A stretch of DNA of 64,000 nucleotides from a virus. The translations under genes were made by a program, and so were the position numbers. Positions 33,283 through 59,763 of this stretch are shown piece after piece. The first letter of the stretch is position 1; every line of letters starts with the position of its first letter. The DNA lies in UHGV virus genome UHGV-0385297, one strand, 5' to 3'. The notes beneath the pieces were generated by a model. The model searched no databases. It was given only the letters and a program-made list of their open reading frames with translations, and was not told the origin of the DNA.

Positions 33283-34257
33283 TTAGAAAGTAAACTTGTC
33301 CTTGTTCTCCTTTACCTTTTTCTTATTAACAGTCAAGTAATGACGTACAGTAGTTTCGGTACTCTCATGATGTAAAAGTTCTGCTATATCCTGAATATCC
33401 ATACCAAGCTCTTTTAAAATATTTGAACCACTATGTCTAAGATCATGATTATGAAGTGTAGGTACACCGATCATTTTTCCTGCCTTTTTACACCAGTCGT
33501 TCAATGTGCTATTTTGAATACATTGAGTTTCTGTAACGTGAGGAGTAATAAATACCCAGCCAAAATCATTGATATTATTTTCTTCTCTATATTTCTTCAA
33601 TTTTCTTAGCAATTGCTCGACTTCCGGAGAGAAATATAAATCAACAACCTTTTGTTCTTTTTCAAGAACGTCATTGCACATACGCTCATCAAGATCAACT
33701 TGTTCCCATTTCAAATGAGACATTGCGTTTACACGAGCCATGGTAGATAACCCAAACATAATATACGTTTGCAGTTGTATGTCTCCATTTTCTTCAAGTT
33801 TTTCTCTTAACAAATTGACCTGATCAACACTTAAAAATGTTTGTTTGATAATAGCCATTCCTTGTTTTGGACGTTCTAGGAATTCTGTAGGAGATTCTTT
33901 AATCAATTTTTTCTTACGGAGAAATTTATAAAAAGCAGATACGGAAGCCATTACTCTTTTCTGTCTATTAACATTATTTCCTTGCTCTTTTCTCCAATAA
34001 AAATATTCCTCTATGTCTTCATCTGTTGCTTCCAGCACTGACAAATTAAATTGATTATCGTACATATAAATAAACCACTGTCTTAAATCTGAATTATACT
34101 GTTGAATACTATTATGAGATAAATCACGAATAGACATATCAATCTGATATTTTTGAAATAGTTTTAACGTTTCTGGATTGATATGTCCCAATTTTTCTTT
34201 ATCGTACAATAAAATTCTTTTACTTTTTTCTGCCATTTTCTCACTTCCTTTACCCAA
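33283..34257 (-). CDS. int: Tyrosine integrase / site-specific recombinase
   Basis: C-terminal catalytic motifs LHNHDLRHSGSN and TTVRHYL (R..HxxR..Y). N-terminal SAM-like domain. Confidence 0.85.
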   Translation of the reverse strand: MGKGSEKMAEKSKRILLYDKEKLGHINPETLKLFQKYQIDMSIRDLSHNSIQQYNSDLRQWFIYMYDNQFNLSVLEATDEDIEEYFYWRKEQGNNVNRQKRVMASVSAFYKFLRKKKLIKESPTEFLERPKQGMAIIKQTFLSVDQVNLLREKLEENGDIQLQTYIMFGLSTMARVNAMSHLKWEQVDLDERMCNDVLEKEQKVVDLYFSPEVEQLLRKLKKYREENNINDFGWVFITPHVTETQCIQNSTLNDWCKKAGKMIGVPTLHNHDLRHSGSNILKELGMDIQDIAELLHHESTETTVRHYLTVNKKKVKENKDKFTF

Positions 34258-36405: not shown

Positions 36406-37020
36406 TTAATAACCGAGAAGCTTTAGAAAATCCTTCATCTGTTTTTCAGATAACTTTTCAGAAGTGTAGAATGTATGACTGGTATACTTACCATCTTCAG
36501 ACTTACTTACGGTAAATCCATGAATATCATCATCTTCGTCAGTTTCTACATCCAGATTCATTTCACCGTCATGTAGCTCTGCACAATCTTCACAGTTTCC
36601 ATCACATTCATCTGTAAGACCAAATAGAATAACTTCCTTCTCAAGGTCTTTACATTCTTCAATCACGTCCTGAGAGACGGAACCGTCCATATCAATGTAG
36701 AAAATATCTGCATCATACAGATCACCGTAATCATCCAGTGGGATGACAGTTACATAACCTTCGTCAGTTACGCTTAACATATATTCAATATCTGGATCGT
36801 CATCAGTAAGATCAACCCTCCAAATACTGGTTTCATCCAGATCCATAACCTCGTCAAAAATGTATTCGACCAGATCTCTGCCCGCGATCAGAGCTACAGT
36901 TTTATCTGTATGATATAAATGATGAATGAACTTATATGCTAATTCTGTGTAGTCATAAACAGTGATAATGTTTAAATTTTCTTTAACTTCAGGTGTTTTA
37001 TTTTCAGTTACCTTTTTCAT
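36406..37020 (-). CDS. Acidic hypothetical protein (204 aa)
   Basis: ORF only. Confidence 0.4.
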   Translation of the reverse strand: MKKVTENKTPEVKENLNIITVYDYTELAYKFIHHLYHTDKTVALIAGRDLVEYIFDEVMDLDETSIWRVDLTDDDPDIEYMLSVTDEGYVTVIPLDDYGDLYDADIFYIDMDGSVSQDVIEECKDLEKEVILFGLTDECDGNCEDCAELHDGEMNLDVETDEDDDIHGFTVSKSEDGKYTSHTFYTSEKLSEKQMKDFLKLLGY

Positions 37021-49860: not shown

Positions 49861-50643
49861 TTATATATTGTTATTCTCTAAAAGTTCTATTTGTTTTTCG
49901 ATTTCCTTATTGCAATCATAGGTTTGATCAATTACCTGGTTGCCATAACTGTCTTTCGTGAAATGTCTGTAATCTGCAAAAACTTTAGGTGTAGTAATAT
50001 ATTTTTCACGAGTTGAGGTGCTGTCTTTGATTCTCTTCATAGCTTTTGATTTTATAATTTCTAATGCATCTAAAATTTCTACTATCCTACCTACGTAACG
50101 TTCTGAAAGTCCTGTTTCATCTGAAATGGTTTTATAATGCCGGTAACAGCATAATGGGGATGTTGAAGATCTATTCATATTTAGACGGAGATAAGATAGA
50201 AGCAATAGAATATATGAAGAAGACATACGGATCGTGTCTACGGAAGTTCCTTCTAATTCTTCTTTAAAATTTAAAATTTTTTCAAGCTCATCGAAGTAAA
50301 TAATTCCAAAACGATCTGGTATATCAAATTTTTCAATATTAAGTTTTACCTGCAGGTATTTCACAGAATTAGTATGTTCTTTTAAACACTTTTCAAAGTC
50401 AGGAAACGTTTCAAAATAATTCTGGTCTGCAAGAAGTAGTAATGTATTATAATATTTCTGATTAATCTTTCCATCTCGGTAATTTGGCTTAAGTTTTGAC
50501 CAGTGGCATAATTCTGTAGTAGAAAATGCCACTGTGTCATCAAGAGAACGCCTTGCACATAAGTATGAAAAGATAATCACACGTTTATCCGATAGGGCAG
50601 TATCATATATAATTTCTTTTGGAATCTTCACATAATTAGGCAA
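49861..50643 (-). CDS. Putative DNA-binding / replisome organizer-like protein
   Basis: Position in the early operon next to iteron-like repeats. No clear motif. Confidence 0.3.
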   Translation of the reverse strand: MPNYVKIPKEIIYDTALSDKRVIIFSYLCARRSLDDTVAFSTTELCHWSKLKPNYRDGKINQKYYNTLLLLADQNYFETFPDFEKCLKEHTNSVKYLQVKLNIEKFDIPDRFGIIYFDELEKILNFKEELEGTSVDTIRMSSSYILLLLSYLRLNMNRSSTSPLCCYRHYKTISDETGLSERYVGRIVEILDALEIIKSKAMKRIKDSTSTREKYITTPKVFADYRHFTKDSYGNQVIDQTYDCNKEIEKQIELLENNNI

Positions 50644-50706
50644 GACGTATCACCTCACTATGCTACAAATGAGCTTATTTTACTGCTATCTACCACTTTT
50701 AATGTA

Positions 50707-51324
50707 TTAATGAGTATGTTTGTTATTTTCATATTCATTTTCAATCTCCTTTGCAATTTTATTACAATATAATTTATATAGTTTTATAACTTCATCATTT
50801 GAAAATCTAATCGTCATATAATTATTCTCCAAAAAGAAAATTCTTCGCATTTTATCTTTTAATTGCTGTAGTTTGTTTGTATGATTTGATCCGTCTATTT
50901 CAATTATCGTTCTCGATTTTCTATCTACAAAATCGGCAATATATCTTTTTACACCATATTTTTTGTATCCATCTTTACCTGTTCCAAATGATATTTGGCA
51001 CTCCAAGTATGGATACATTTCTTTAAATATTCGTTCATGTTTCGTGGTGAATTTATCATTACAACCGCCATGTAAATTAGATTTTTCATAAATTAAATAA
51101 TCTTTATAATTATGTACTTGGGTTATAACATTGTACAACGGTAAACTACTCTCAAATATTTTTTGAGATAAATCAGACAAACAAATGTTATTCATTTTAG
51201 AAAGCTTCTTTTTTAATAAAATCCAATTAAGACGTTCTTTGGAAACATCTATAGATTCTTGATACTTTCTATTAAAAACATTCAGTTCCTCAATGTTAAT
51301 CTGTTGCATTTTTAATTCCTCCAA
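50707..51324 (-). CDS. DUF559/Vsr-like endonuclease domain protein
   Basis: RYIADFVDRKSRTIIEIDGSNH, a paralogous fold to the C-terminus of 40198..41367. Confidence 0.45.
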   Translation of the reverse strand: MEELKMQQINIEELNVFNRKYQESIDVSKERLNWILLKKKLSKMNNICLSDLSQKIFESSLPLYNVITQVHNYKDYLIYEKSNLHGGCNDKFTTKHERIFKEMYPYLECQISFGTGKDGYKKYGVKRYIADFVDRKSRTIIEIDGSNHTNKLQQLKDKMRRIFFLENNYMTIRFSNDEVIKLYKLYCNKIAKEIENEYENNKHTH

Positions 51325-51389
51325 TTTAAATATTTTATTTGTAATATCTTATTCTCCAAAATTTTAAAAATCTTTCTGTACATTTAGGT

Positions 51390-52640
51390 ACATCATCTTA
51401 TACCCAAAACTCGCTCTGTCAGATTTTAAAATAGAAGAGTAGCTTTACATGGTCTGAAGTCCCCAATTTGGGTACATTTATATATACCTAAAATTCACTT
51501 TATCCAACTAAAGCAAAAATACGTTTAGGTACATGTAGGATATACCCAAAAGTGTAAAATTCCTTCATTTGGGTACATGCCAGCTATCACTTTTGTGCAG
51601 TCCATATCAAGATAGACTCATATATATCAAGAGAAGAGTATTGTACATTCACAATAAATTGTTCATGTACGATTACGGGCTTCGCCCTATATTTTGTTCT
51701 CTCTTTTTCTTTCTCTCCATTTGTTTTCTTCCTTTTGATATTTGGGTACATATATGTGTACCTATCTGCAGGTTTCTTTCTTCTTGTTTATTTTCTCTAT
51801 TTGGGTACATAGTTTATATACCTAAAATGAGTGGAAAAATAATAATATGTTCTTTAAATTGATTTCTTATGTATTTTTTTCATCTTTCTTTTATCCATTT
51901 CCACCTATTTTCACCTAAAACAGATTCGTATCCTCTTTCTTTTAAGATTTGGGTACATGCTTCAGCTCCGATCCAGTCATAGTCTAATGGTTCCTGGCAG
52001 CAGTGTAGGTAATAATCAATCTGTCCTATTAACCATTTATCCGAATTATTTTGTGATGCTGATAAAGTTCTTCTTTTAAAGCTATGTATTCTTGTTTATG
52101 TTCTTCATCAAGTGTTGACCATAGATCCACAGGATATAACATCATCTTATTTGTATCCTTTCTTATATAAGTCTTTGCATACTGCATAACCGATTGATGC
52201 CAAGTCATTGCCTTTTTTAATCTTTTCTTTCCAATTCTGCATACATACCTCTATAGAATTGGGAAATTTATAAGTCTTGTAAAATTCGTACATGATTGCA
52301 TATAACTCTTTAAATTCTTTTACTGTATAAATCTTTGTTTCTTTTGATGTCATTTTGAATTACCTCATTTTCTGTTTTATTTTATTGCTATATTATTGTT
52401 CTCCATTTTAAAATTTTTTCTTTGGATTTCTTTTTGTCCTGTTTCTGATCAGAAGAGTAATTAACTTTCTTCATATGCTATTAGTAGATCTACGATCACT
52501 TTTTAAGGATTAAAATCCATTTGGATGGCCCAGGTGATAAGTTGCTATGGTGCGAGATTCAACTGTCTTATTTTTCTGTGAGATAAGATTTAGGCTAATG
52601 AATATCCTGGATGGCTATTCAGGTACATGTTTTGGGTACA
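51390..52640. repeat. Iteron/operator array with at least 7 copies of (A)TTTGGGTACAT, some inverted
   Basis: Copies at about 51398 (inverted), 51466, 51543 (inverted), 51568, 51737, 51797, 51946 and 52625. A companion TATACCTAAAAT motif occurs twice. Confidence 0.6.
52147..52353 (-). CDS. Hypothetical small protein
   Basis: ORF only. Confidence 0.3.
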   Translation of the reverse strand: MTSKETKIYTVKEFKELYAIMYEFYKTYKFPNSIEVCMQNWKEKIKKGNDLASIGYAVCKDLYKKGYK

Positions 52641-52965
52641 ATGTTTTGTCTACCCTTGGAAATTCTTTCTTCGCAGGCTCAGAAAGACCGTCCCTAATCA
52701 TAGGGACTATTTCTTGTCAGTTTTTAGATAGGGGAGTAGTTAATGATCAGAATGAGATGTTCTACGAAATTCTTTACATGGGATTTGGTAACTCTGTGTG
52801 AGTTTTTGATACCTATTTTCGTTTCTAAGTATGCGAGTGGTAAGTTGGTAGGGTAGGAGAGTAAAATGGCTAGAATTTTTCTGAGCGTTGATTTAAACAA
52901 ATGATATTTTAGAGATATGAATTAGGTACAAAAAATAAGACACCCTGATCAGGATGCCTTATCTA

Positions 52966-53820
52966 CTATGATGCTTTATCAAAAATGGTTGTATATTTAG
53001 TTTGGGTTGTTTCCAGCTGCATAAGATTATACTGTCGCAGAAGTGTATCTACTACGTTTTCGAACAATACTCTAATGTGAGGTGAATGTTCAATGGCATC
53101 TAAGGTATAACATGTTTTCAGTTTATTTTCATAGCAATAATCTTCTTTTAGCTGATTTAAATCTATATCAGGATAGAGATTCTGCATTTCTCTGTAAAGG
53201 TTCTTATATAATTCTGTATAAGAAATATCAAAATATTCTGCTAAGAGCTGATACTTTGGGAACATCTTTGTGGACCAATAGGAATATTTACGCTGAGAGA
53301 TTGATTTCTGTGTAGTCTTAAGATTATTGATCTCATTTTGCATAACAGTAATAGTAGTAGTGATGTCTGTCATAGCTTTTGTTAATTCGGATACTGTTTT
53401 AGTTAATGAAAATACTGCATCTGTGACTTGAGTAAAATCATTCATTGAGACCAGATCATTGTGTCGGTATTTTTCTACAATATCCCATACCCAATCCATG
53501 AAAAGGTTTGCTTTTGGCTGTCTGGACCAACGGCAGATTTCCATAACACCACGTTCTGTATAATAAACACGCTCTTGTTCTTCGCTCTTAGTCAGGTTAG
53601 TACCAATTTGGTACTGACCTAATTTCATTCTTATACATAATGGATCTAATCTATCCTTATGCTTAAGATGAATTCTTCTAATACACATTGATGGATCAGT
53701 ATATTCTAACGCCTGACCAATCTGTTCTCTTGTAAGAAGGATATCATCATTCATATTACGATAGAAGCTGCAGGATAAATTATTAAAGGTTTCTGTGGTT
53801 ACTAATTTTAATGTACTCAT
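52966..53820 (-). CDS. Putative antirepressor/DNA-binding protein (KilA-N/ORF6N-like N-terminus)
   Basis: N-terminal LLTREQIGQALEY...RGVMEICRWSR. The call is weak. Confidence 0.3.
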   Translation of the reverse strand: MSTLKLVTTETFNNLSCSFYRNMNDDILLTREQIGQALEYTDPSMCIRRIHLKHKDRLDPLCIRMKLGQYQIGTNLTKSEEQERVYYTERGVMEICRWSRQPKANLFMDWVWDIVEKYRHNDLVSMNDFTQVTDAVFSLTKTVSELTKAMTDITTTITVMQNEINNLKTTQKSISQRKYSYWSTKMFPKYQLLAEYFDISYTELYKNLYREMQNLYPDIDLNQLKEDYCYENKLKTCYTLDAIEHSPHIRVLFENVVDTLLRQYNLMQLETTQTKYTTIFDKAS

Positions 53821-53985
53821 TTAGTTGTCTCCTTATGTATTTTTACTTTGTTAGTGGTTACATAAGAATATTCTCCTAATGAGTTAGGATTTGTTTACAG
53901 TTTAATTTGTAATAAAATCTTTCTTTGTATATTGAATGTTGTATGTTATAATCATGTATAAGTCATATAATTTTAGGAGGAGAGC

Positions 53986-54849
53986 ATGAGAAGATCGTTA
54001 AAGGATTTGCGCGGTGTCGAAAAAGATTCATATAAAGGTTTGCCTGAAGAGCTGAGAGAGTTCAATTATTATATTCCTGATTGTGGCAATGTAATTATGG
54101 CTGTGCCTGAGTGTTTATTAGAGAAAGCAGAAGAAAACGGTGAACTGGATATGTTTGAGTGTCCGTTTCCTGTAAAGTATGTGTTGGAAAAAGGATATAG
54201 AATATATAAAAATCACGTTATTTGTGAAGGAAAGTATGATAAGTTTGTTGGATTGCAGGTTGAAGAGGATTATTATGAATATAATAGACCAAGTAAGAGT
54301 AGTGGCGGATCAATATATACAAATGCGTTGATTAATGCTCTCAAAGGTAAGGTCTTTCCATCTTATATAGGGATGTCAGAAGGCACATTATTTGATATGA
54401 GTGATACAGGAGCTACTTTGACCATGTTTATGTATGATCCTGAAAAAGATGAAATTGCACAGTTTGATAGGTCTAAACCAGTTGAGATTCGATTTGCTGC
54501 TATAAAAGATGTCATTATGATGACTATTAAATTGGGCAATTTAGAATGGTGGGAAGCACCATACAGTGTTCATTTAAGTAGGAATTTGACACGGATGCCG
54601 GTCATTGAAGATGGTAAGGGTATTAATCTTACTTTGATGTTAGTTAATATTAGAACTGGAAGAGTAGAAAATGTAAAAGTAGTACAGCTATCTACAGAAT
54701 TTAGTGTTGCGCTATGCAAGGCTATTGATAAGCAGAGATCTACGAAGTTCTCGAATACAATGTATAATATAAATATTGATCGGTTATATGATATGTATAC
54801 TGCGGATCAGCTGGCAGAAATGGGTACTGCAAGGTGTAAGATTGGTTAA
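53986..54849 (+). CDS. Hypothetical protein (287 aa)
   Basis: RBS AGGAGG. Confidence 0.5.
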   Translation: MRRSLKDLRGVEKDSYKGLPEELREFNYYIPDCGNVIMAVPECLLEKAEENGELDMFECPFPVKYVLEKGYRIYKNHVICEGKYDKFVGLQVEEDYYEYNRPSKSSGGSIYTNALINALKGKVFPSYIGMSEGTLFDMSDTGATLTMFMYDPEKDEIAQFDRSKPVEIRFAAIKDVIMMTIKLGNLEWWEAPYSVHLSRNLTRMPVIEDGKGINLTLMLVNIRTGRVENVKVVQLSTEFSVALCKAIDKQRSTKFSNTMYNINIDRLYDMYTADQLAEMGTARCKIG

Positions 54850-55335
54850 TGGTAGAGTGGATTTGTAGTATAGATATAATGGTAGATACGACAAGTTAAT
54901 AATCGGATACGTTAGAACGATCCCTGGGTAATGGTATGTTATGTACTGTTACTTGGGGATTTTTTGTTGTGTAATTGTGTTGGGATGGATCGGAATGGAT
55001 GAAGGGTATGTTTTGATGTGTTATGAGTTGAAAACATGGAATCGTAAATTCCCTTTAATATAATGAAGAAACACGTTTTAAGATTAGAATTTTAATTTTT
55101 GGGATGTTGCATTTTTTGAAATTTTGGTGCGATTTTTATTGAGATTGCGGGATTTTTACGATAAGGGGGCCGATAACAGTTTTTGAGGTGGTGACGAGGG
55201 GATTTTGGGCGTAGTTGTGGGGAAATGGAGTGTTGGGATTTGGAATGTAGATGGGAGAGGAGCGTGATACACCTGGATGAGTTGGAAGTGGTGGGTGATT
55301 TGGAAGAGATGTTCAAATTTTAATTTGAAAGTTTG
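54850..55335 (+). other. C-depleted, G/T-rich, GGA-repeat-rich non-coding segment
   Basis: The plus strand has almost no C over about 480 nt. There are many GGA/GGGAT/TTGGGAT motifs and G-tracts. Confidence 0.5.
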
Positions 55336-55662
55336 ATTTTGAACTTAGTGTGTAGATGAAACAGCTACCGGCTCTGGTGAAAACACTTTAGCACTTTAAA
55401 GTTTTAACCAGCCCCCATAAACAATAATAGTAATAATTACTGTTATTTTACACGGTTTTTTCCTATTTTACCGTAGCCGAACATATGTTCTGTTATTTGA
55501 TCCGACTTCTGGCAATCGAACATATGTTTGCTTATTGACTGTGAGCTATGATAGTTTTTTAAACTTTTACATGTAGTATTGATAACTACATGTAATGATA
55601 TTTAATACTATAAGAGGTAGTTCGACAGTGAAAAAATAATATCGAAAAAATTAAAATTGTTA

Positions 55663-55691
55663 TTGACAATCACACTATCATGTGATATATT
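55663..55691 (+). promoter_or_regulatory. Promoter TTGACA-17-TATATT with an embedded TCACAC-N6-TGTGA operator
   Basis: Sequence read directly. Confidence 0.55.
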
Positions 55692-55763
55692 ATAGTCAAG
55701 TTCATAAAGAACGACAGCGGGAACGCTGTTATAGCACTTTTAAAAGTTTTTAGAAAAAAGTGC

Positions 55764-55792
55764 TTGACAATCACATGAACGTGTGATATAGT
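55764..55792 (+). promoter_or_regulatory. Promoter TTGACA-17-TATAGT with an embedded TCACA-N6-TGTGA operator
   Basis: Sequence read directly. It is tandem to the previous promoter. Confidence 0.55.
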
Positions 55793-55799
55793 CATTAAT

Positions 55800-56530
55800 G
55801 TAAGAACAAAGTAGTTCAGTTCTTACAGCCGCTAAAATGCCCATGTGGGGCGGTGGCAAGTTCCTTGTCAATTTAATAGGAATAAAGCCCATGAATTGAA
55901 AAATTCACAGGCTTTAAAAGTTGGTTTGATAAACCAAACCGTAGCAAGTTCAGTTTATCATTCTATCTTTCATTTGTCAAGTCTGGCAAGTGTTTTCCTA
56001 TTAATCGGCTACCAGTGACGGCACTGGTGGACTTTGCGCAACGGTCAAGATAACAATACTGGATGCCCGCAAGAGTGTCTAGCGTTTACGCAAGTAAGCG
56101 CATTGTGAAAATACCCGTTGTGGGTACATTGAAAAATAAACAACTTATACAGTGTTTTATAAAGCGTTTGGCATTTTCAACAACGGGTGAATTCCCCGTT
56201 AAAATGTCCGTGTAGCGTATAAAAGCGTTACACTAGCAAGCTGGACTTAGCACGACTGCGGTTGTGAACGTGTTCGCATTTGCGCACTTAGCTTGCTACT
56301 GGTGAAAATCCCACACTAGGATTCTGAAATCTTGCCTAGTAGTGACCCGTAAGAAGGTAGGAAGTCGGTTTAAGGCTGAGAAGCATTTTGGACAATAAAT
56401 AAAATGATTGTAAGACGTGTCGTTATACATAGGTCAAGGGGCGGACTAGCACTACCAGTCTGTCCTTTGCTCGTGTGCATAACACGGCAACTACAAAAAA
56501 TAATTTTAATTCCGCAATGCGGAGAAAGAG
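55800..56530 (+). ncRNA. Large, highly structured non-coding RNA candidate (ROOL/GOLLD-like?)
   Basis: About 700 nt without a credible ORF and GC-richer than its surroundings. Multiple long-range helices (ACCCGTTGT...ACAACGGGT; TAGCAAGCT...AGCTTGCTA; GTAAGAAC...GTTCTTAC). It sits downstream of two strong promoters. Confidence 0.4.
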
Positions 56531-56538
56531 GTATTTAT

Positions 56539-57339
56539 ATGAAGATTAACTTTTTAGCAAACTTTGAGAAAGTAACTATCAACGCTATTGTGCCAGCGGT
56601 ACAGTATGAGGCTAACCTGATGCTTCAGACTATGAATGATGAAGCAATCGCTAAACAGGATAAAATCATCTCTAATCAAAAAGGTGGTTACTCTGAGGAC
56701 GAAATTAAGGTAGCAAAGGACAAAAAGAGTAAACTGGAAGCCGCTAACGCTGAACTTGTAATTGCTAATGCTGAACTTGAGCCACGCTACAAGTCTACCC
56801 TGGAAGTAGTTACCAGTGCTAACAATGGTCATGTATCTAATGACCTTGTAGCGTTCCGTAACATTTTACGGCTTGTGGCATGCTCTGATAATAGCAAGTT
56901 TTTCCGCTATGCCATTATCACAGATGTCGATTTTTCAACGTTTTATGACCTGTTTGAAAAGTGCCATTCTATCGATGGTGACTTTGATGACAATGGTATG
57001 CGTGTATACCTTAATCAGGCTTGGAACACCCATAAAGACATCAAAGCTGAGATTGAAAAAATCCTTAAAAAAATGTTTTCACTCGTTGCTGACAGTGATT
57101 TAACCAAAAAAGTTACTATCAGATTTAACAAAACAGACCTTGGCATCTTACATGAGTGTTACGTCACAGGTCTGACCGTTTCTGCTAAAAAGGATAAAAA
57201 CGGTGAGGTAGTAGTGGGTGATTATAAATTTAGAACTGTAATCACTCGTAAGAAAGACAAGGATGGCAATGATAAGTTTGAAGGTGACAAGTTCAAAGAA
57301 CTCATTGCTAAAATTGCGTTTGGAAAACTGTATGCATAG
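56539..57339 (+). CDS. Hypothetical protein (266 aa)
   Basis: RBS GGAGAAAGAGG. The track ORF starts earlier, inside the structured RNA. Confidence 0.5.
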   Translation: MKINFLANFEKVTINAIVPAVQYEANLMLQTMNDEAIAKQDKIISNQKGGYSEDEIKVAKDKKSKLEAANAELVIANAELEPRYKSTLEVVTSANNGHVSNDLVAFRNILRLVACSDNSKFFRYAIITDVDFSTFYDLFEKCHSIDGDFDDNGMRVYLNQAWNTHKDIKAEIEKILKKMFSLVADSDLTKKVTIRFNKTDLGILHECYVTGLTVSAKKDKNGEVVVGDYKFRTVITRKKDKDGNDKFEGDKFKELIAKIAFGKLYA

Positions 57340-57428
57340 TTTTCACAGGACACAGCGGTTTAAGGGCGGTTCAACTCCGCCCGTGTCTAGTTATAGAAAA
57401 TATAAACAATTTACGGAGGTAAAATAAC

Positions 57429-57683
57429 ATGAATATGGTTCAGGTACAGAAAATGTTAATAAACGTATACCGTGATTACATCGGTATGGGCAGAAGGCAG
57501 AGCGAAATGGATAAAAGCGTTCTGTCTTTTTTAATGCAGGAATATTCCCAGACTTGCATGGACTGGGAAGAAATCCAGTGGCTCTGGATCCAGTATCTTA
57601 AAAAGGGTGTATTGGATCTTCCAGAGGCAATGAAAAGAGCCAAATTAAGAATAGAACAGGAGACAGCGGTATGTGTAAGGTAA
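57429..57683 (+). CDS. Hypothetical protein
   Basis: ORF with an RBS. Confidence 0.4.
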   Translation: MNMVQVQKMLINVYRDYIGMGRRQSEMDKSVLSFLMQEYSQTCMDWEEIQWLWIQYLKKGVLDLPEAMKRAKLRIEQETAVCVR

Positions 57684-58069
57684 AAGTGTATCACACAATT
57701 TCCAGGGAAGTATTTCACGGAATGCAATTTGCACCATTTTCTATCCGTGCGGTATTTGAGAACGGAACAGAGCTTGTATGCTCTGAATTTTCCAGAACTG
57801 AAAGCGGTATAACAATGTACCTGTACAACGGAAGTGGTGCATGGAAACGTATCTGCAATAACGGCATTTATGCGGATTTAATGGAAAAGTATTACCGCCG
57901 TTGGTTCAAAGAAAAACATGATAGTCTGAACTATGCAGCTATGATGAAACATGACCGTAAACGCAAAACAGGTTCAGCTGGACAGAGGCTCACACCATTC
58001 TGCGGACAGGTCACAGACTATGAATGTGCGAAAATTCCATTGCATGACTTTCGCAGAGTATGGAACTAA
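57671..58069 (+). CDS. Hypothetical protein
   Basis: ORF only. Confidence 0.4.
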   Translation: MCKVKVYHTISREVFHGMQFAPFSIRAVFENGTELVCSEFSRTESGITMYLYNGSGAWKRICNNGIYADLMEKYYRRWFKEKHDSLNYAAMMKHDRKRKTGSAGQRLTPFCGQVTDYECAKIPLHDFRRVWN

Positions 58070-58242
58070 CAAAGGGAGGTAGCGAAATGTTAGAAATAAA
58101 TAATGATATTAAGATTATTACAGACGCAATTAACACTTTTGGAAGTTGTACTATGCACATTCTTCCAAAAGACAAAGAAGAGAAATTAACAGAACTGGGA
58201 TATGAAATATCCCGTAAAAGTTGGGGAATTATTATAAGATAA
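58060..58242 (+). CDS. Hypothetical small protein
   Basis: RBS GGGAGGTAGCGAAATG. Confidence 0.35.
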   Translation: MELTKGGSEMLEINNDIKIITDAINTFGSCTMHILPKDKEEKLTELGYEISRKSWGIIIR

Positions 58243-58256
58243 TTGGAGGTAGCGAA

Positions 58257-58340
58257 ATGATGAGTTTTGTTTGGGTAATGTGTGTATTTTTCGGTGGTAT
58301 GGCATGTGGTTATTTACTTACTGATAATAAGGAGGATTAA
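58257..58340 (+). CDS. 27-aa hydrophobic peptide MMSFVWVMCVFFGGMACGYLLTDNKED
   Basis: Identical RBS block GGAGGTAGCGAAATG to that at 58070. Below the track cut-off. Confidence 0.3.
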   Translation: MMSFVWVMCVFFGGMACGYLLTDNKED

Positions 58341-58344
58341 GGAT

Positions 58345-58710
58345 ATGAAAAGAGAAATGACTAGAGGAGAAATGAGACTGTATTTAACTGGCAATGCCAG
58401 TGTATGGGTAGGTAAGACATTTGCACATGGTAAAAACATGCGCATGGTATCCAGGTTCACAGAAGAGGCAGATTATACCTGTGAGTATGATGGTGAGGAT
58501 CTGGGTGATGGATTCTGCACACATGACGTAGACGAGGCACTTGACTGGTTATTCGGTGTACGGAAATCAAACTACCAGAAGCATTATTTCTACTTTGCGA
58601 CTGGGGAAAATGTAAAATCAATCTGCTTTTACACATCAGAGGACGCATGGGAATTTGTAAAAGAATACGCAGATAGCGGTTATGACTGCGTAGTAGAAAG
58701 ATATATATAA
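58345..58710 (+). CDS. Hypothetical protein
   Basis: RBS AAGGAGG before the internal ATG. Confidence 0.45.
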   Translation: MKREMTRGEMRLYLTGNASVWVGKTFAHGKNMRMVSRFTEEADYTCEYDGEDLGDGFCTHDVDEALDWLFGVRKSNYQKHYFYFATGENVKSICFYTSEDAWEFVKEYADSGYDCVVERYI

Positions 58711-58833
58711 AGGCAGACCATGCTCTGCCAGCTCTGAGTTATGGAAACCGCTACGAGGTTCAGAGCAGACAACGGAATTTATTTCGGCTAATATCCATAG
58801 GTAACTTGTAAACCAGTATAAAAACCGTTATAC

Positions 58834-59043
58834 TTGACTTATAAAAGTGAAAGGCGGTGGAAAGGAATGGAAGGCATGAGCGAAAGCGAACTGATTGCTG
58901 TATTAATCGATAAGTACACAGATTTACAGCGAATCAAAAAAGCAAACGGCGGAGTAGAAAACGCAGAACTTGATTATCAGATTAAAGTCACCACTGCGAA
59001 ATTAGCTTCTATGAAGGTAAATGTAGAAGATTTAACTTTATAA
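58834..59043 (+). CDS. Hypothetical small protein
   Basis: ORF only. Confidence 0.35.
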   Translation: MTYKSERRWKGMEGMSESELIAVLIDKYTDLQRIKKANGGVENAELDYQIKVTTAKLASMKVNVEDLTL

Positions 59044-59120
59044 TCCGTCCGGGATTCAGGGGCAAGGGATATAAAAATTCCTTGCTCTTTTTATGCCTAA
59101 AATACAGGAGGTAAAGTGAT

Positions 59121-59651
59121 ATGTGTAAATATTTCAGCGGATGCAAAACAAAACAGCAGCTTAAAGTACGGTTTAAAACTCTGATTAAAGAGAATCACCC
59201 AGACAATGGAGGGGATCTGGAAACAATGCAGACCATAAACGCAGAATACGACAGATTAGTTAAAATTCTTCCAGATATTCCAGGTTCAGAAACAGAAATG
59301 CGTGATGAAAAAGAAAAATCTGCACGGAAACCAGAACCAGAAAAAACAGAAACCGATTTTACAGACTTATCAGACGCAGTAAAACAGGCTATAGCCAGAG
59401 CAACGCAGATACCAGGTATTGAAGTGGAAGTGTGTGGTTCTTGGGTATGGGTATCCGGAAATACTTACGCAGTTAAGAATACATTGAAAGAAATTGGCTT
59501 CCGGTTCTCAGGCAAAAAGAAAATGTGGTATTTCCATGAGGAAATTGAAGGACGGAAATACTTCAAACGTAAAAGAGAAATGGATATGGGATCTATCCGA
59601 TCTAAGTATGGTACGGAAACTATGTATCATAGGGAAGTATGCTTAGGGTAG
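59121..59651 (+). CDS. J-domain (DnaJ-like) protein
   Basis: LIKENHPDNGGDLETMQTINAEYDRL resembles the J-domain HPD helix II-III region. Confidence 0.45.
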   Translation: MCKYFSGCKTKQQLKVRFKTLIKENHPDNGGDLETMQTINAEYDRLVKILPDIPGSETEMRDEKEKSARKPEPEKTETDFTDLSDAVKQAIARATQIPGIEVEVCGSWVWVSGNTYAVKNTLKEIGFRFSGKKKMWYFHEEIEGRKYFKRKREMDMGSIRSKYGTETMYHREVCLG

Positions 59652-59703
59652 TGCCTAGTATGACGGCAGAAGAGAAATTTTCTGTCGTTGATAGTGGGTA
59701 TTA

Positions 59704-59732
59704 TTGAAAATCACATGTATATGTGATAGAAT
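59704..59732 (+). promoter_or_regulatory. Promoter TTGAAA-17-TAGAAT with an embedded TCACA-N6-TGTGA operator
   Basis: Same architecture as the promoters at 55663 and 55764. Confidence 0.5.
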
Positions 59733-59763
59733 GGAGGTAATTATATAGGACGGAGGAAAGGAA

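Follow-up and report, generated by a model that had tools for sequence, protein, structure and literature searches.

Three promoters with one palindrome in a phage genome

The window, as we call the whole stretch of DNA analyzed here, comprises 64,000 nucleotides (nt) of UHGV virus genome UHGV-0385297. It contains three plus-strand promoters, P1, P2, and P3, and the gene of a small helix-turn-helix (HTH) protein, named HTH93. P1 (55663-55691) is of the sigma-70 type, TTGACA (55663-55668)-ATCACACTATCATGTGA-TATATT (55686-55691), and is followed in tandem, at a distance of 101 nt, by P2 (55764-55792), TTGACA (55764-55769)-ATCACATGAACGTGTGA-TATAGT (55787-55792). Both point into a 740-nt stretch poor in open reading frames (ORFs; 55799-56538). 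P3 (59704-59732), TTGAAA (59704-59709)-ATCACATGTATATGTGA-TAGAAT (59727-59732), is the weaker promoter of the proposed repressor gene. All three have a 17-nt spacer and the TG of an extended -10. Putative operators, to which no strand is assigned, occupy the spacers: O1 (55669-55686, ATCACACTATCATGTGAT) that of P1, O2 (55770-55787, ATCACATGAACGTGTGAT) that of P2, and O3 (59710-59727, ATCACATGTATATGTGAT), the proposed autoregulatory site, that of P3. A preliminary description, made from the sequence alone, had reported TCACA-N6-TGTGA between -35 and -10 of three promoters; we recovered all three where it had placed them, letter for letter.

The motif TCACA-N6-TGTGA matches three times in the window (starts at 55670, 55771, and 59711). 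The expected number is 0.10, and none of 100 dinucleotide-preserving shuffles reached three. Each of the three sites extends to the 18-mer ATCACA-N6-TGTGAT, and a window-wide search for this 18-mer returned the same three promoter spacers and no scattered copies, so that the palindrome does not occur at random elsewhere in the window. When two mismatches were allowed, only the sites at 36601 and 50576 were added, giving five in total at a chance level of 5.2. The small regulon of the preliminary description thus stands as three sites in 64 kb, a statement confined to the 64 kb seen.

In a promoter scan of positions 50000-64000, P1 and P2 had the two top scores, each with 11 of 12 consensus matches and TG before the -10; P3 had 10 of 12, also with a 17-nt spacer and TG. 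The right arm of the operator, TGTGA, supplies the TGn of the extended -10, so that operator and extended -10 overlap. The N6 differs among P1, P2, and P3, indicating that the three sites are not recent copies. CRP/FNR sites have the half-site order TGTGA-N6-TCACA, which is inverted in the sites described here; the inverted order offers a different surface to a protein, and we therefore rejected a CRP-like reading.

A very stable hairpin (59647-59705, -30.2 kcal/mol, z = -8.8) ends within the -35 of P3, and its core is kept in the close relative L138 (see below). It may serve as an insulator of P3 or as the end point of upstream transcripts.

HTH93 resembles dimeric operator-binding regulators

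The HTH93 gene (59764-60045, plus strand) encodes an XRE-family protein of 93 amino acids (aa), which we propose as the repressor of P1, P2, and P3. Its ATG lies 32 nt downstream of P3, and residues 6-65 match positions 1-63 of the 63-position PF13443 (HTH_26) profile with 51.9 bits (cut-off 22; 9e-14), which bears out the earlier placement of the third promoter before an XRE-type HTH gene. The AlphaFold2 model (mean predicted local distance difference test score, pLDDT, 84) has a five-helix fold like that of lambda repressor (helices 5-13, 18-24, 30-35, 42-52, and 56-59) followed by a C-terminal helix (66-90), in which a heptad-like hydrophobic pattern is visible by eye. The top Foldseek matches were VanU(G) (3tyr; root mean square deviation 1.1 Å over 61 residues) and the N-terminal DNA-binding domain of SaPI2 Stl; weaker ones (E > 0.03) were CylR2, DdrO, C.AhdI, and SinR. 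The nearest solved structures are dimeric operator-binding regulators.

Human-gut contigs, the longest of 189 kb, encode proteins identical or nearly identical to HTH93. An alignment of the family shows a conserved C-terminal half and discrete sequence classes in the region of helices 2 and 3. Some homologues join the N-terminus of one class to the C-terminus of another, which suggests modular exchange.

The location of the palindrome in the spacer recalls the sites of MerR-family activators, and the -35 of P3 is weak, with only TTG conserved. We therefore weighed a MerR-like activation, in which HTH93 would bind the spacer and reshape the promoter. MerR-type activation depends on a spacer of 19-20 nt. 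The spacers here have the optimal length of 17 nt and are not over-long, P1 and P2 match 11 of 12 consensus positions and carry TG, and HTH93 matches the HTH_26/XRE fold and lacks the winged-helix/coiled-coil fold of MerR. We assigned it to a different class and regard such activation as highly improbable.

The promoter-palindrome design is conserved in viral contigs

Viral contigs were searched with the pattern TTGAMA-ATCACA-N6-TGTGATA (19 specified bases). This yielded 115 loci, mostly on contigs of 80-200 kb, and in many of them two or three copies stood in tandem, at intervals of about 91-105 or 184-201 nt. Sufficient downstream DNA was available for 68 loci, and in 55 of these an HTH93 homologue (51-63% identity) was encoded downstream on the same strand, at a distance of 1.4-3.2 kb in all but one (56 nt). 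The 13 loci without a homologue each had a single promoter-palindrome match. The usual order in relatives is tandem promoters, a noncoding leader of approximately 800-1200 nt, p266, p132, a weaker palindrome promoter, and the HTH gene, which in most relatives directly follows p132 and is the third gene of the P1/P2 operon.

The HTH-proximal promoters of relatives carry the same palindrome with -35 boxes such as TTGCTA, TTGTGA, and TTGTAC. These boxes lie outside the search pattern, so the HTH-proximal sites are independent observations. Every class-A HTH gene with an upstream gap is preceded by TTGnnn-(A)TCACA-N6-TGTGAT-TAnAAT. Across 39 distinct class-A upstream regions only the TTG of the -35, both half-sites, the -10, and the following GGAGGT are conserved; the half-sites are conserved like the -10, and the N6 and positions 4-6 of the -35 vary. 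Loci found via the protein alone (72-82% identity) also had the palindrome in front of the HTH gene. The palindrome is thus tied to the HTH gene, by the homologue downstream and by its own promoter with the same palindrome.

In the window, GGAGGT (59733-59738) directly follows the -10 of P3 (TAGAAT-GGAGGT), an arrangement kept in most class-A loci, and a second ribosome-binding site lies nearer the HTH93 start codon. One relative, L176, has four tandem HTH_26 genes of two alternating types (7600-9151), with the P3-like promoter/operator duplicated before each 91-aa copy.

These comparisons also bear on the proposal that the palindrome is a by-product of promoter design (a TRTGn extended -10) combined with chance or duplication, with no factor bound to it. 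The right arm TGTGA is indeed part of the extended -10, strong promoters of Clostridia contain single copies by chance (e.g., those before rplJ and alaS), and P1/P2 could have arisen by duplication. However, the left arm ATCACA has no promoter role and yet is conserved like the -10, the N6 differs between P1, P2, and P3, and relatives exchange both arms symmetrically while keeping the hexamers. We find this explanation barely credible.

Operators and regulator gene are replaced together

A search of viral contigs with a 15-mer of the conserved leader loop (AGCACTACCAGTCTG) gave mostly chance matches and brought in the close relative L138, whose P1, P2, and leader share 91% identity with those of the window. 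In a three-way alignment of the window, L138, and L191, the -35 boxes, the -10 boxes, and the flanks were invariant, whereas the spacers differed. Both the P1 and the P2 spacer of L138 contain ACATGTT-N3-AACATGC (the O1 counterpart being CATGTT-ACT-AACATG). CATGTT-N3-AACATG is present in P1, P2, and P3 of L138, with five copies in 7.7 kb vs. 0.05 expected, and one copy forms the spacer of the promoter of a 64-aa gene. This gene occupies the exact position of HTH93, and the two proteins have no detectable relation. Identity between the window and L138 ends at the -35 of P3 and returns at the last codons of the regulator gene. The 64-aa protein matched nothing in Pfam, and no solved structure resembled it in a meaningful way; from its sequence pattern only, we suspect a ribbon-helix-helix protein.

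Other relatives vary the palindrome in similar ways. Both tandem spacers of L191 contain ATCACTT-N4-AAGTGA (TCACT-N6-AGTGA; O1 counterpart TCACTTTATAAAGTGA), and L120, with the recognition helix ISKNMPYKFS, has CCACA-N6-TGTGG, in which both half-sites are changed symmetrically. HTH homologues with the recognition helix LSPT(I/L)(I/V)AKFQ have ACTAC-type palindromes in their own promoters. In L187 and L188, where LSPTIIAKFQ replaces ISVNMPTKFS, such palindromes are also found in the homologous tandem promoters before the homologous leader, and L130 and L174 have ACTACAC-N4-GTGTAGT in the tandem promoter. In contrast, L194 encodes an HTH93 that is 99% identical; its leader and p266 have diverged, and each of its three promoters retains ATCACA-N6-TGTGAT. 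In total, we counted at least five types of palindrome and two regulator proteins unrelated to each other.

The p176-P3-HTH93 module (window 58839-60140) is 97.5% identical in another mobile element (L192/L193/L195, approximately 9076-10374), which encodes ArdC, Fic, Uma2, HNH, ParB, and tubulin-like proteins and has the P3 site alone within 20 kb. This identity to an unrelated element indicates recent exchange.

The coupled replacement of operator and regulator is the strongest evidence for a pairing of HTH93 with the palindrome. The parallel variation of recognition helix and palindrome and the joint swap of regulator and operators point, indirectly, to HTH93 as a putative sequence-specific, dimeric binder of the palindrome. 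The link between operator and HTH protein in the preliminary description, including probable autoregulation, thus gains support from comparative genomics: O3 lies in P3, the same palindrome precedes the homologues, and the swaps are coupled.

Proposed mechanism

We consider it reasonably probable that HTH93 is a dimeric phage repressor that occludes the tandem promoters P1/P2 and its own promoter P3, forming a negative feedback loop. P1 and P2 would be tandem, near-consensus promoters for the host sigma-A, transcribing the leader of about 740 nt and the small genes from p266 to p58. HTH93 would be made from its own weaker promoter P3, and perhaps also by read-through. The protein would dimerize, probably via its C-terminal helix, and place each HTH on one half-site, the half-site centers being 11 bp apart; bound to the 18-bp site, it would exclude RNA polymerase. 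Upon entry, the strong promoters would fire, the repressor would accumulate, P1/P2 would be turned down, and P3 would keep the repressor at a set level. What the analysis shows directly is that the sites are placed nonrandomly, that the layout is conserved, and that operators and regulator gene are replaced jointly; binding, dimerization, the sign of regulation, and timing are what we infer.

The near-consensus hexamers and 17-nt spacers indicate that P1, P2, and P3 need no activator. Since the site in addition fills the spacer and overlaps the extended -10, repression is the natural reading, and a regulator that is co-directional, in the operon, and devoid of a sensor domain points toward feedback, which would then be an early shut-off resembling that by Cro or Aca. 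The preliminary description held that the site is placed where it would occlude RNA polymerase. The placement agrees, for the site spans the whole spacer and overlaps the extended -10, and the repression itself is read from this geometry.

Several observations weigh against this model. The search covered 64 kb of a genome that is likely 100-190 kb long, and further sites are possible. Four relatives (L183-L186) encode a class-A-like paralogue (ISVNMPAKFSHN) and had no TCACA-N6-TGTGA within 12 kb, even with one mismatch. The terminator-like hairpin at 59058-59098 (see below) means that HTH93 may not be cotranscribed with the P1/P2 unit here. Furthermore, bacterial genome contigs contained at least 120 matches to the 19 specified bases, hardly ever with an HTH93 gene in the vicinity, and 13 of these matches represent one conserved host promoter, that of a chromosomal DUF1836/MerR-like gene in diverse Clostridia.

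The matches in bacterial contigs were almost always one per locus, and in the absence of an HTH93 gene they show that the motif alone is not diagnostic. Most lie before unrelated housekeeping genes (e.g., rplJ and alaS) and plausibly reflect chance among strong TGTGnTA promoters. The 13 DUF1836 loci (L197, L231, L234, L241, L250, L252, L272, L278, L282, L291, L295, L312, and L314) are of a different kind. All 13 have TTGACA-ATCACATGACC(A/G)TGTGAT-ATAAT, with an invariant site between a consensus -35 and -10 and with diverged flanks, and their DUF1836 proteins are only 34-61% identical to one another. In sequence and in position, this site equals the operator of the phage. The gene heads a conserved operon, in which an NfeD-like gene and then a flotillin gene follow, and the P2 spacer (ATCACATGAACGTGTGAT) is very close to this host site.

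This raises the alternative that the palindromes are sites of a host regulator, for example the DUF1836/MerR-like protein, so that the phage borrows host control and HTH93 is aimed elsewhere. The persistence of an identical site at 13 chromosomal loci despite protein divergence, the conserved operon, and the similarity of the P2 spacer speak for it. However, it leaves unexplained the change of the palindrome at all three promoters alongside the swap of the regulator gene, the retention of the site by the P3-HTH93 cassette in an unrelated element, and the helix variants that track palindrome variants. Because a host regulator cannot explain the coupled swaps, we rank the host site as a rival or an added layer and not as the main explanation; on its own we think it unlikely. 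A host protein may nevertheless recognize the phage-type site, with potential cross-talk between phage and host.

A structured leader and small genes lie downstream of P1 and P2

We now turn to what the promoters of the proposed circuit would transcribe. The leader (55799-56538, plus strand; the start is approximate and assumes a transcript beginning approximately 7 nt past the -10) has a minimum free energy of -244.8 kcal/mol over its 740 nt, with z = -7.0 on the plus and -5.3 on the minus strand against shuffles. Over these 740 nt we found no credible ORF downstream of P2. The equivalent stretch measures 746-1238 nt in relatives and is always followed by p266; its first 750 nt there contain no ORF beyond chance length. 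Between 55300 and 59800 there was no Rfam match at E <= 1 except for a ribozyme resembling that of hepatitis delta virus (HDV), and the leaders of relatives matched no Rfam family either; taken together, these Rfam searches gave nothing but an HDV-like hit and one twister hit.

A conserved element in the 3' part of the leader (56422-56488, plus strand), just 5' of the p266 ribosome-binding site, consists of a long-range helix, GUUAUACAUAG/UAGUGUGCAUAAC, around a hairpin whose loop varies in length and sequence (UAGCACUACCA in the window). In the inner hairpin helix, nine of the 10 pairs vary in both bases, and pairing holds in 97.7% of the alignment cells. This level of covariation was reached in none of 500 shuffles, and controls with slid partners collapsed; it was measured on a trimmed alignment (A4) of 18 distinct sequences with a structure given by hand. 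A MAFFT alignment of the whole leader (17 sequences over 2123 columns) was too gappy and was set aside, and RNAalifold on a 16-sequence MAFFT leader alignment returned only four invariant pairs. A local hairpin, AUAGUGU/ACACUAU, was poorly supported (83% paired, one compensatory pair) and was rejected; the competing long-range helix fits slightly better. Being noncoding in relatives and containing a covarying helix, the leader merits the wording "structured RNA region" used for it in the preliminary description. It may belong to a class of RNA not yet described or regulate gene expression in cis.

The first gene past the leader, p266 (56539-57339, plus strand), is kept at that position across the family. 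Its identity is 25-32% in most relatives and reaches 48% in L190, and tblastn placed hits directly after the leader in 41-55 loci. It had no Pfam and no PHROG match, a word search found only six homologues, and its AlphaFold2 model is of low confidence (pLDDT 62). Between p266 and p84, a hairpin (57348-57392) has a core resembling a tRNA T-arm (GGGCGG-UUCAACU-CCGCCC, closed by GACAC/GUGUC); it was not called by ARAGORN, and the sequence is present in L138 too. The small plus-strand genes p84 (57429-57683), p132 (57671-58069; after p266 in 25 loci), p60 (58087-58242), and p121 (58345-58710) continue the P1/P2 unit and have no Pfam or PHROG family match.

Between cistrons, at 58731-58800 on the plus strand, lies a candidate HDV-like self-cleaving ribozyme, a full-length match to RF02682 with 44.1 bits against a gathering score of 44. 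A weaker HDV-like match (34.6 bits) follows an HTH gene in L176 (8336-8405), and a twister-P5 ribozyme (45 bits) lies between the tandem promoters and the HTH gene of L060 (2484-2559, minus strand); 13 other relatives had no ribozyme match. Self-cleavage by the candidate may process the polycistronic RNA. The final gene, p58 (58867-59043, plus strand), is followed by a terminator-like hairpin of 13 bp (59058-59098, plus strand) and UCUUUUUAU (-20.6 kcal/mol, z = -2.9), where most P1/P2 transcripts probably end.

Between this hairpin and P3 lies p176 (59121-59651, plus strand), which matches phrog_15863 (no function assigned), has no Pfam match, and is absent from L138; its N-terminal stretch ...ENHPDNGGD... 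looks J-domain-like by eye. The P3 unit consists of HTH93 and p69 (60045-60254, plus strand), which overlaps the HTH93 stop (ATGA), and ends with a terminator-like hairpin (60271-60315, plus strand) followed by UUUCUUUAU (-18.4 kcal/mol, z = -4.7). Since L138 has p69 too, this gene is outside the swapped cassette. A toxin-antitoxin pair HTH93/p69 was rejected: p69 is also found behind the unrelated 64-aa gene of L138, and a 40-aa ORF stands behind HTH93 in L192.

Phage setting and lifestyle

The window encodes tailed-phage functions (tape measure protein, portal protein, PhoH, exonuclease, homing endonucleases, and five tRNAs). Nearly all long ORFs between approximately 6.4 and 53.8 kb are on the minus strand, and the block of small plus-strand genes begins at 53986. 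The promoters and GGAGG ribosome-binding sites point to a Firmicutes host, and the best explanation is that the window belongs to a large uncultured tailed phage of gut Clostridia. Searches of INPHARED by DNA and protein gave no useful cultured relatives, only one 223-nt match and one 43% protein match (lemur virus).

Downstream of the P3 unit, at 60341-61058, lie a gene for a RelE-family toxin (PF06296, 2e-10) and, behind it, one that resembles an HTH_3 antitoxin gene. The pair is conserved in L138 and has its own promoter-like site, TTGACA-17-TATTTT, without the palindrome. At the other end of the window, positions 1-6400 contain no ORF of at least 120 aa and adjoin a region (6428-8442) in which one gene is DUF3990/PARP-like and another encodes an N-terminal GmrSD domain.

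Just 5' of P1, CGAACATATGTT occurs twice (55478-55491 and 55517-55530, 39 nt apart) and resembles the LexA/Cheo box of Firmicutes (GAAC-N4-GTT); none of 100 shuffles contained as many. In L011, L025, L030, and L102, GAAC-N4-GTTC lies within the spacer of an additional upstream promoter, TTGATA-ATAGAACAAATGTTCGA-TAAAAT, which suggests SOS-controlled entry into the P1/P2 operon. Between the LexA-like boxes and P1 there is a perfect inverted repeat, TTACATGTAGT-N7-ACTACATGTAA (55567-55595), with no T-run after it. It is identical in L138 and L191 and nearly identical in L176, and could be a further operator or a structural element. Farther upstream, 55100-55310 is G/T-rich, with strong GC skew (0.35 over 54-56 kb), short GATTTT/GGATTT-like repeats, and a TTTTACGATAAGGGG...CGATAA motif. 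Similar G/T-rich stretches lie 5' of the tandem promoters in L176 and L187, and the region may be an origin or a packaging site, or lie at an end of the genome.

The LexA-box-like motifs bring in the possibility that HTH93 serves a temperate or plasmid-like prophage as its maintenance (immunity) repressor. P1/P2 would then be silenced and P3 autoregulated, and the diversity of pairs would reflect heteroimmunity as in lambdoid phages. Concerted swaps of operator and repressor between near-identical phages are the signature of an immunity region. A tyrosine recombinase gene is present (33283-34257), and among the PHROG families, ParB-like partition proteins weakly match an XRE-HTH protein encoded at 62257-63384. 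The LexA-box-like motifs stand just 5' of P1 and, in some relatives, inside the spacer of the extra promoter, and 99%-identical HTH93 occurs on a 3.5-Mb contig of a metagenome-assembled genome and in the element with ParB and tubulin-like genes. Together, the immunity-like cassette swaps, the recombinase, and the LexA-box-like motifs point toward a temperate lifestyle. On the other hand, HTH93 is co-directional with the operon to be silenced, and in most relatives inside it, rather than divergent from it. It lacks a peptidase or sensor domain through which it could be induced, the recombinase gene is far off among structural and replication genes, and the 3.5-Mb contig holds the other element and not the window phage. 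A scan of genome contigs for hosts and prophages gave mostly unrelated single promoters, and lifestyle was not confirmed thereby. We see the immunity repressor as a possible, minority alternative to repression by negative feedback.

What the locus may represent

We tentatively suggest a broader view, which we hold to be possible rather than probable: the repressor gene and the palindromes of three promoters would form a plug-in module that is swapped as a set, is shared with another element, and gates an undescribed leader of 0.75-1.2 kb together with p266, while the repressor and a host regulator might each act on promoters of the other, the most frequent operator type being identical to the conserved DUF1836 operator of the host. 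Unless this identity is a coincidence, it would represent phage-host regulatory cross-talk that is open to direct testing. The relatives supply several candidate orthogonal repressor/operator pairs from uncultured phages of gut Clostridia, and one scaffold with swappable 17-nt spacers is the layout of an engineered promoter. The locus also flags what is probably the early end, devoted to host takeover, in a large family of uncultured phages and shows what its strongest and most tightly controlled promoters govern: a conserved RNA absent from Rfam, p266, and a candidate ribozyme.

Comparison with known systems

The early region of T7 has tandem promoters for the host polymerase (A1-A3), a leader, and a polycistronic mRNA processed by RNase III. 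The window resembles it in its tandem strong host-type promoters, long leader, early operon of small genes, and processing between cistrons, for which the candidate ribozyme would serve here. In contrast, the T7 promoters have no operators and shut-off is different; the window genes are presumed to be early.

With the Cro/CI regions of lambdoid phages (imm434 and imm21), the window shares a phage HTH dimer (putative here), palindromes overlapping early promoters, and the exchange of modules that changes specificity. Unlike these regions, it has neither a divergent repressor/anti-repressor pair nor a cooperative tripartite OR/OL; there is one site per promoter, exactly in the spacer, and the regulator that replaces HTH93 in L138 is not its homologue. 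With all genes from 53986 onward on the plus strand and a single site per promoter, we do not assign the locus to the CI/Cro switches.

At Pant of phage P22, a very strong promoter is shut by Arc, a small repressor encoded in the operon, through an operator between -35 and -10. Arc differs from HTH93 in being a ribbon-helix-helix protein that acts on a single promoter as part of the immI antirepressor circuit. Restriction-modification C proteins, VanU(G), SinR, and CylR2 resemble HTH93 as small XRE-type dimers on palindromes in or next to their own promoters. However, there are no restriction-modification or van genes here, and their identity to HTH93 is 17-34%. C proteins, moreover, use paired sites that activate and then repress, unlike the one-site promoters of the window.

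Anti-CRISPR-associated (Aca) regulators offer a further parallel. For each Aca family, a conserved inverted repeat lies within the core promoter, which the cognate Aca represses (PMC9410906). The window likewise has an inverted repeat in the core promoter of the HTH-encoding operon, with O3 in P3 and O1/O2 in P1/P2. HTH93 is similarly a small HTH protein of a mobile element, encoded in or after its operon, with the repeat inside a strong, presumably early core promoter. Differences are the three promoters, two of them in tandem, the long structured leader, and the separate repressor promoter. Aca regulators are encoded together with an anti-CRISPR (acr) gene; the operon genes of the window had no Pfam or PHROG match, and in the relative L179 a weak ArdA match was found farther downstream. 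In its logic, the circuit is ordinary and of a well-known type, a small phage repressor on the spacer of strong promoters. Three features deserve note: repressor/operator cassettes that can be exchanged while the promoter scaffold stays fixed, an undescribed leader RNA, and a host operator of identical sequence.

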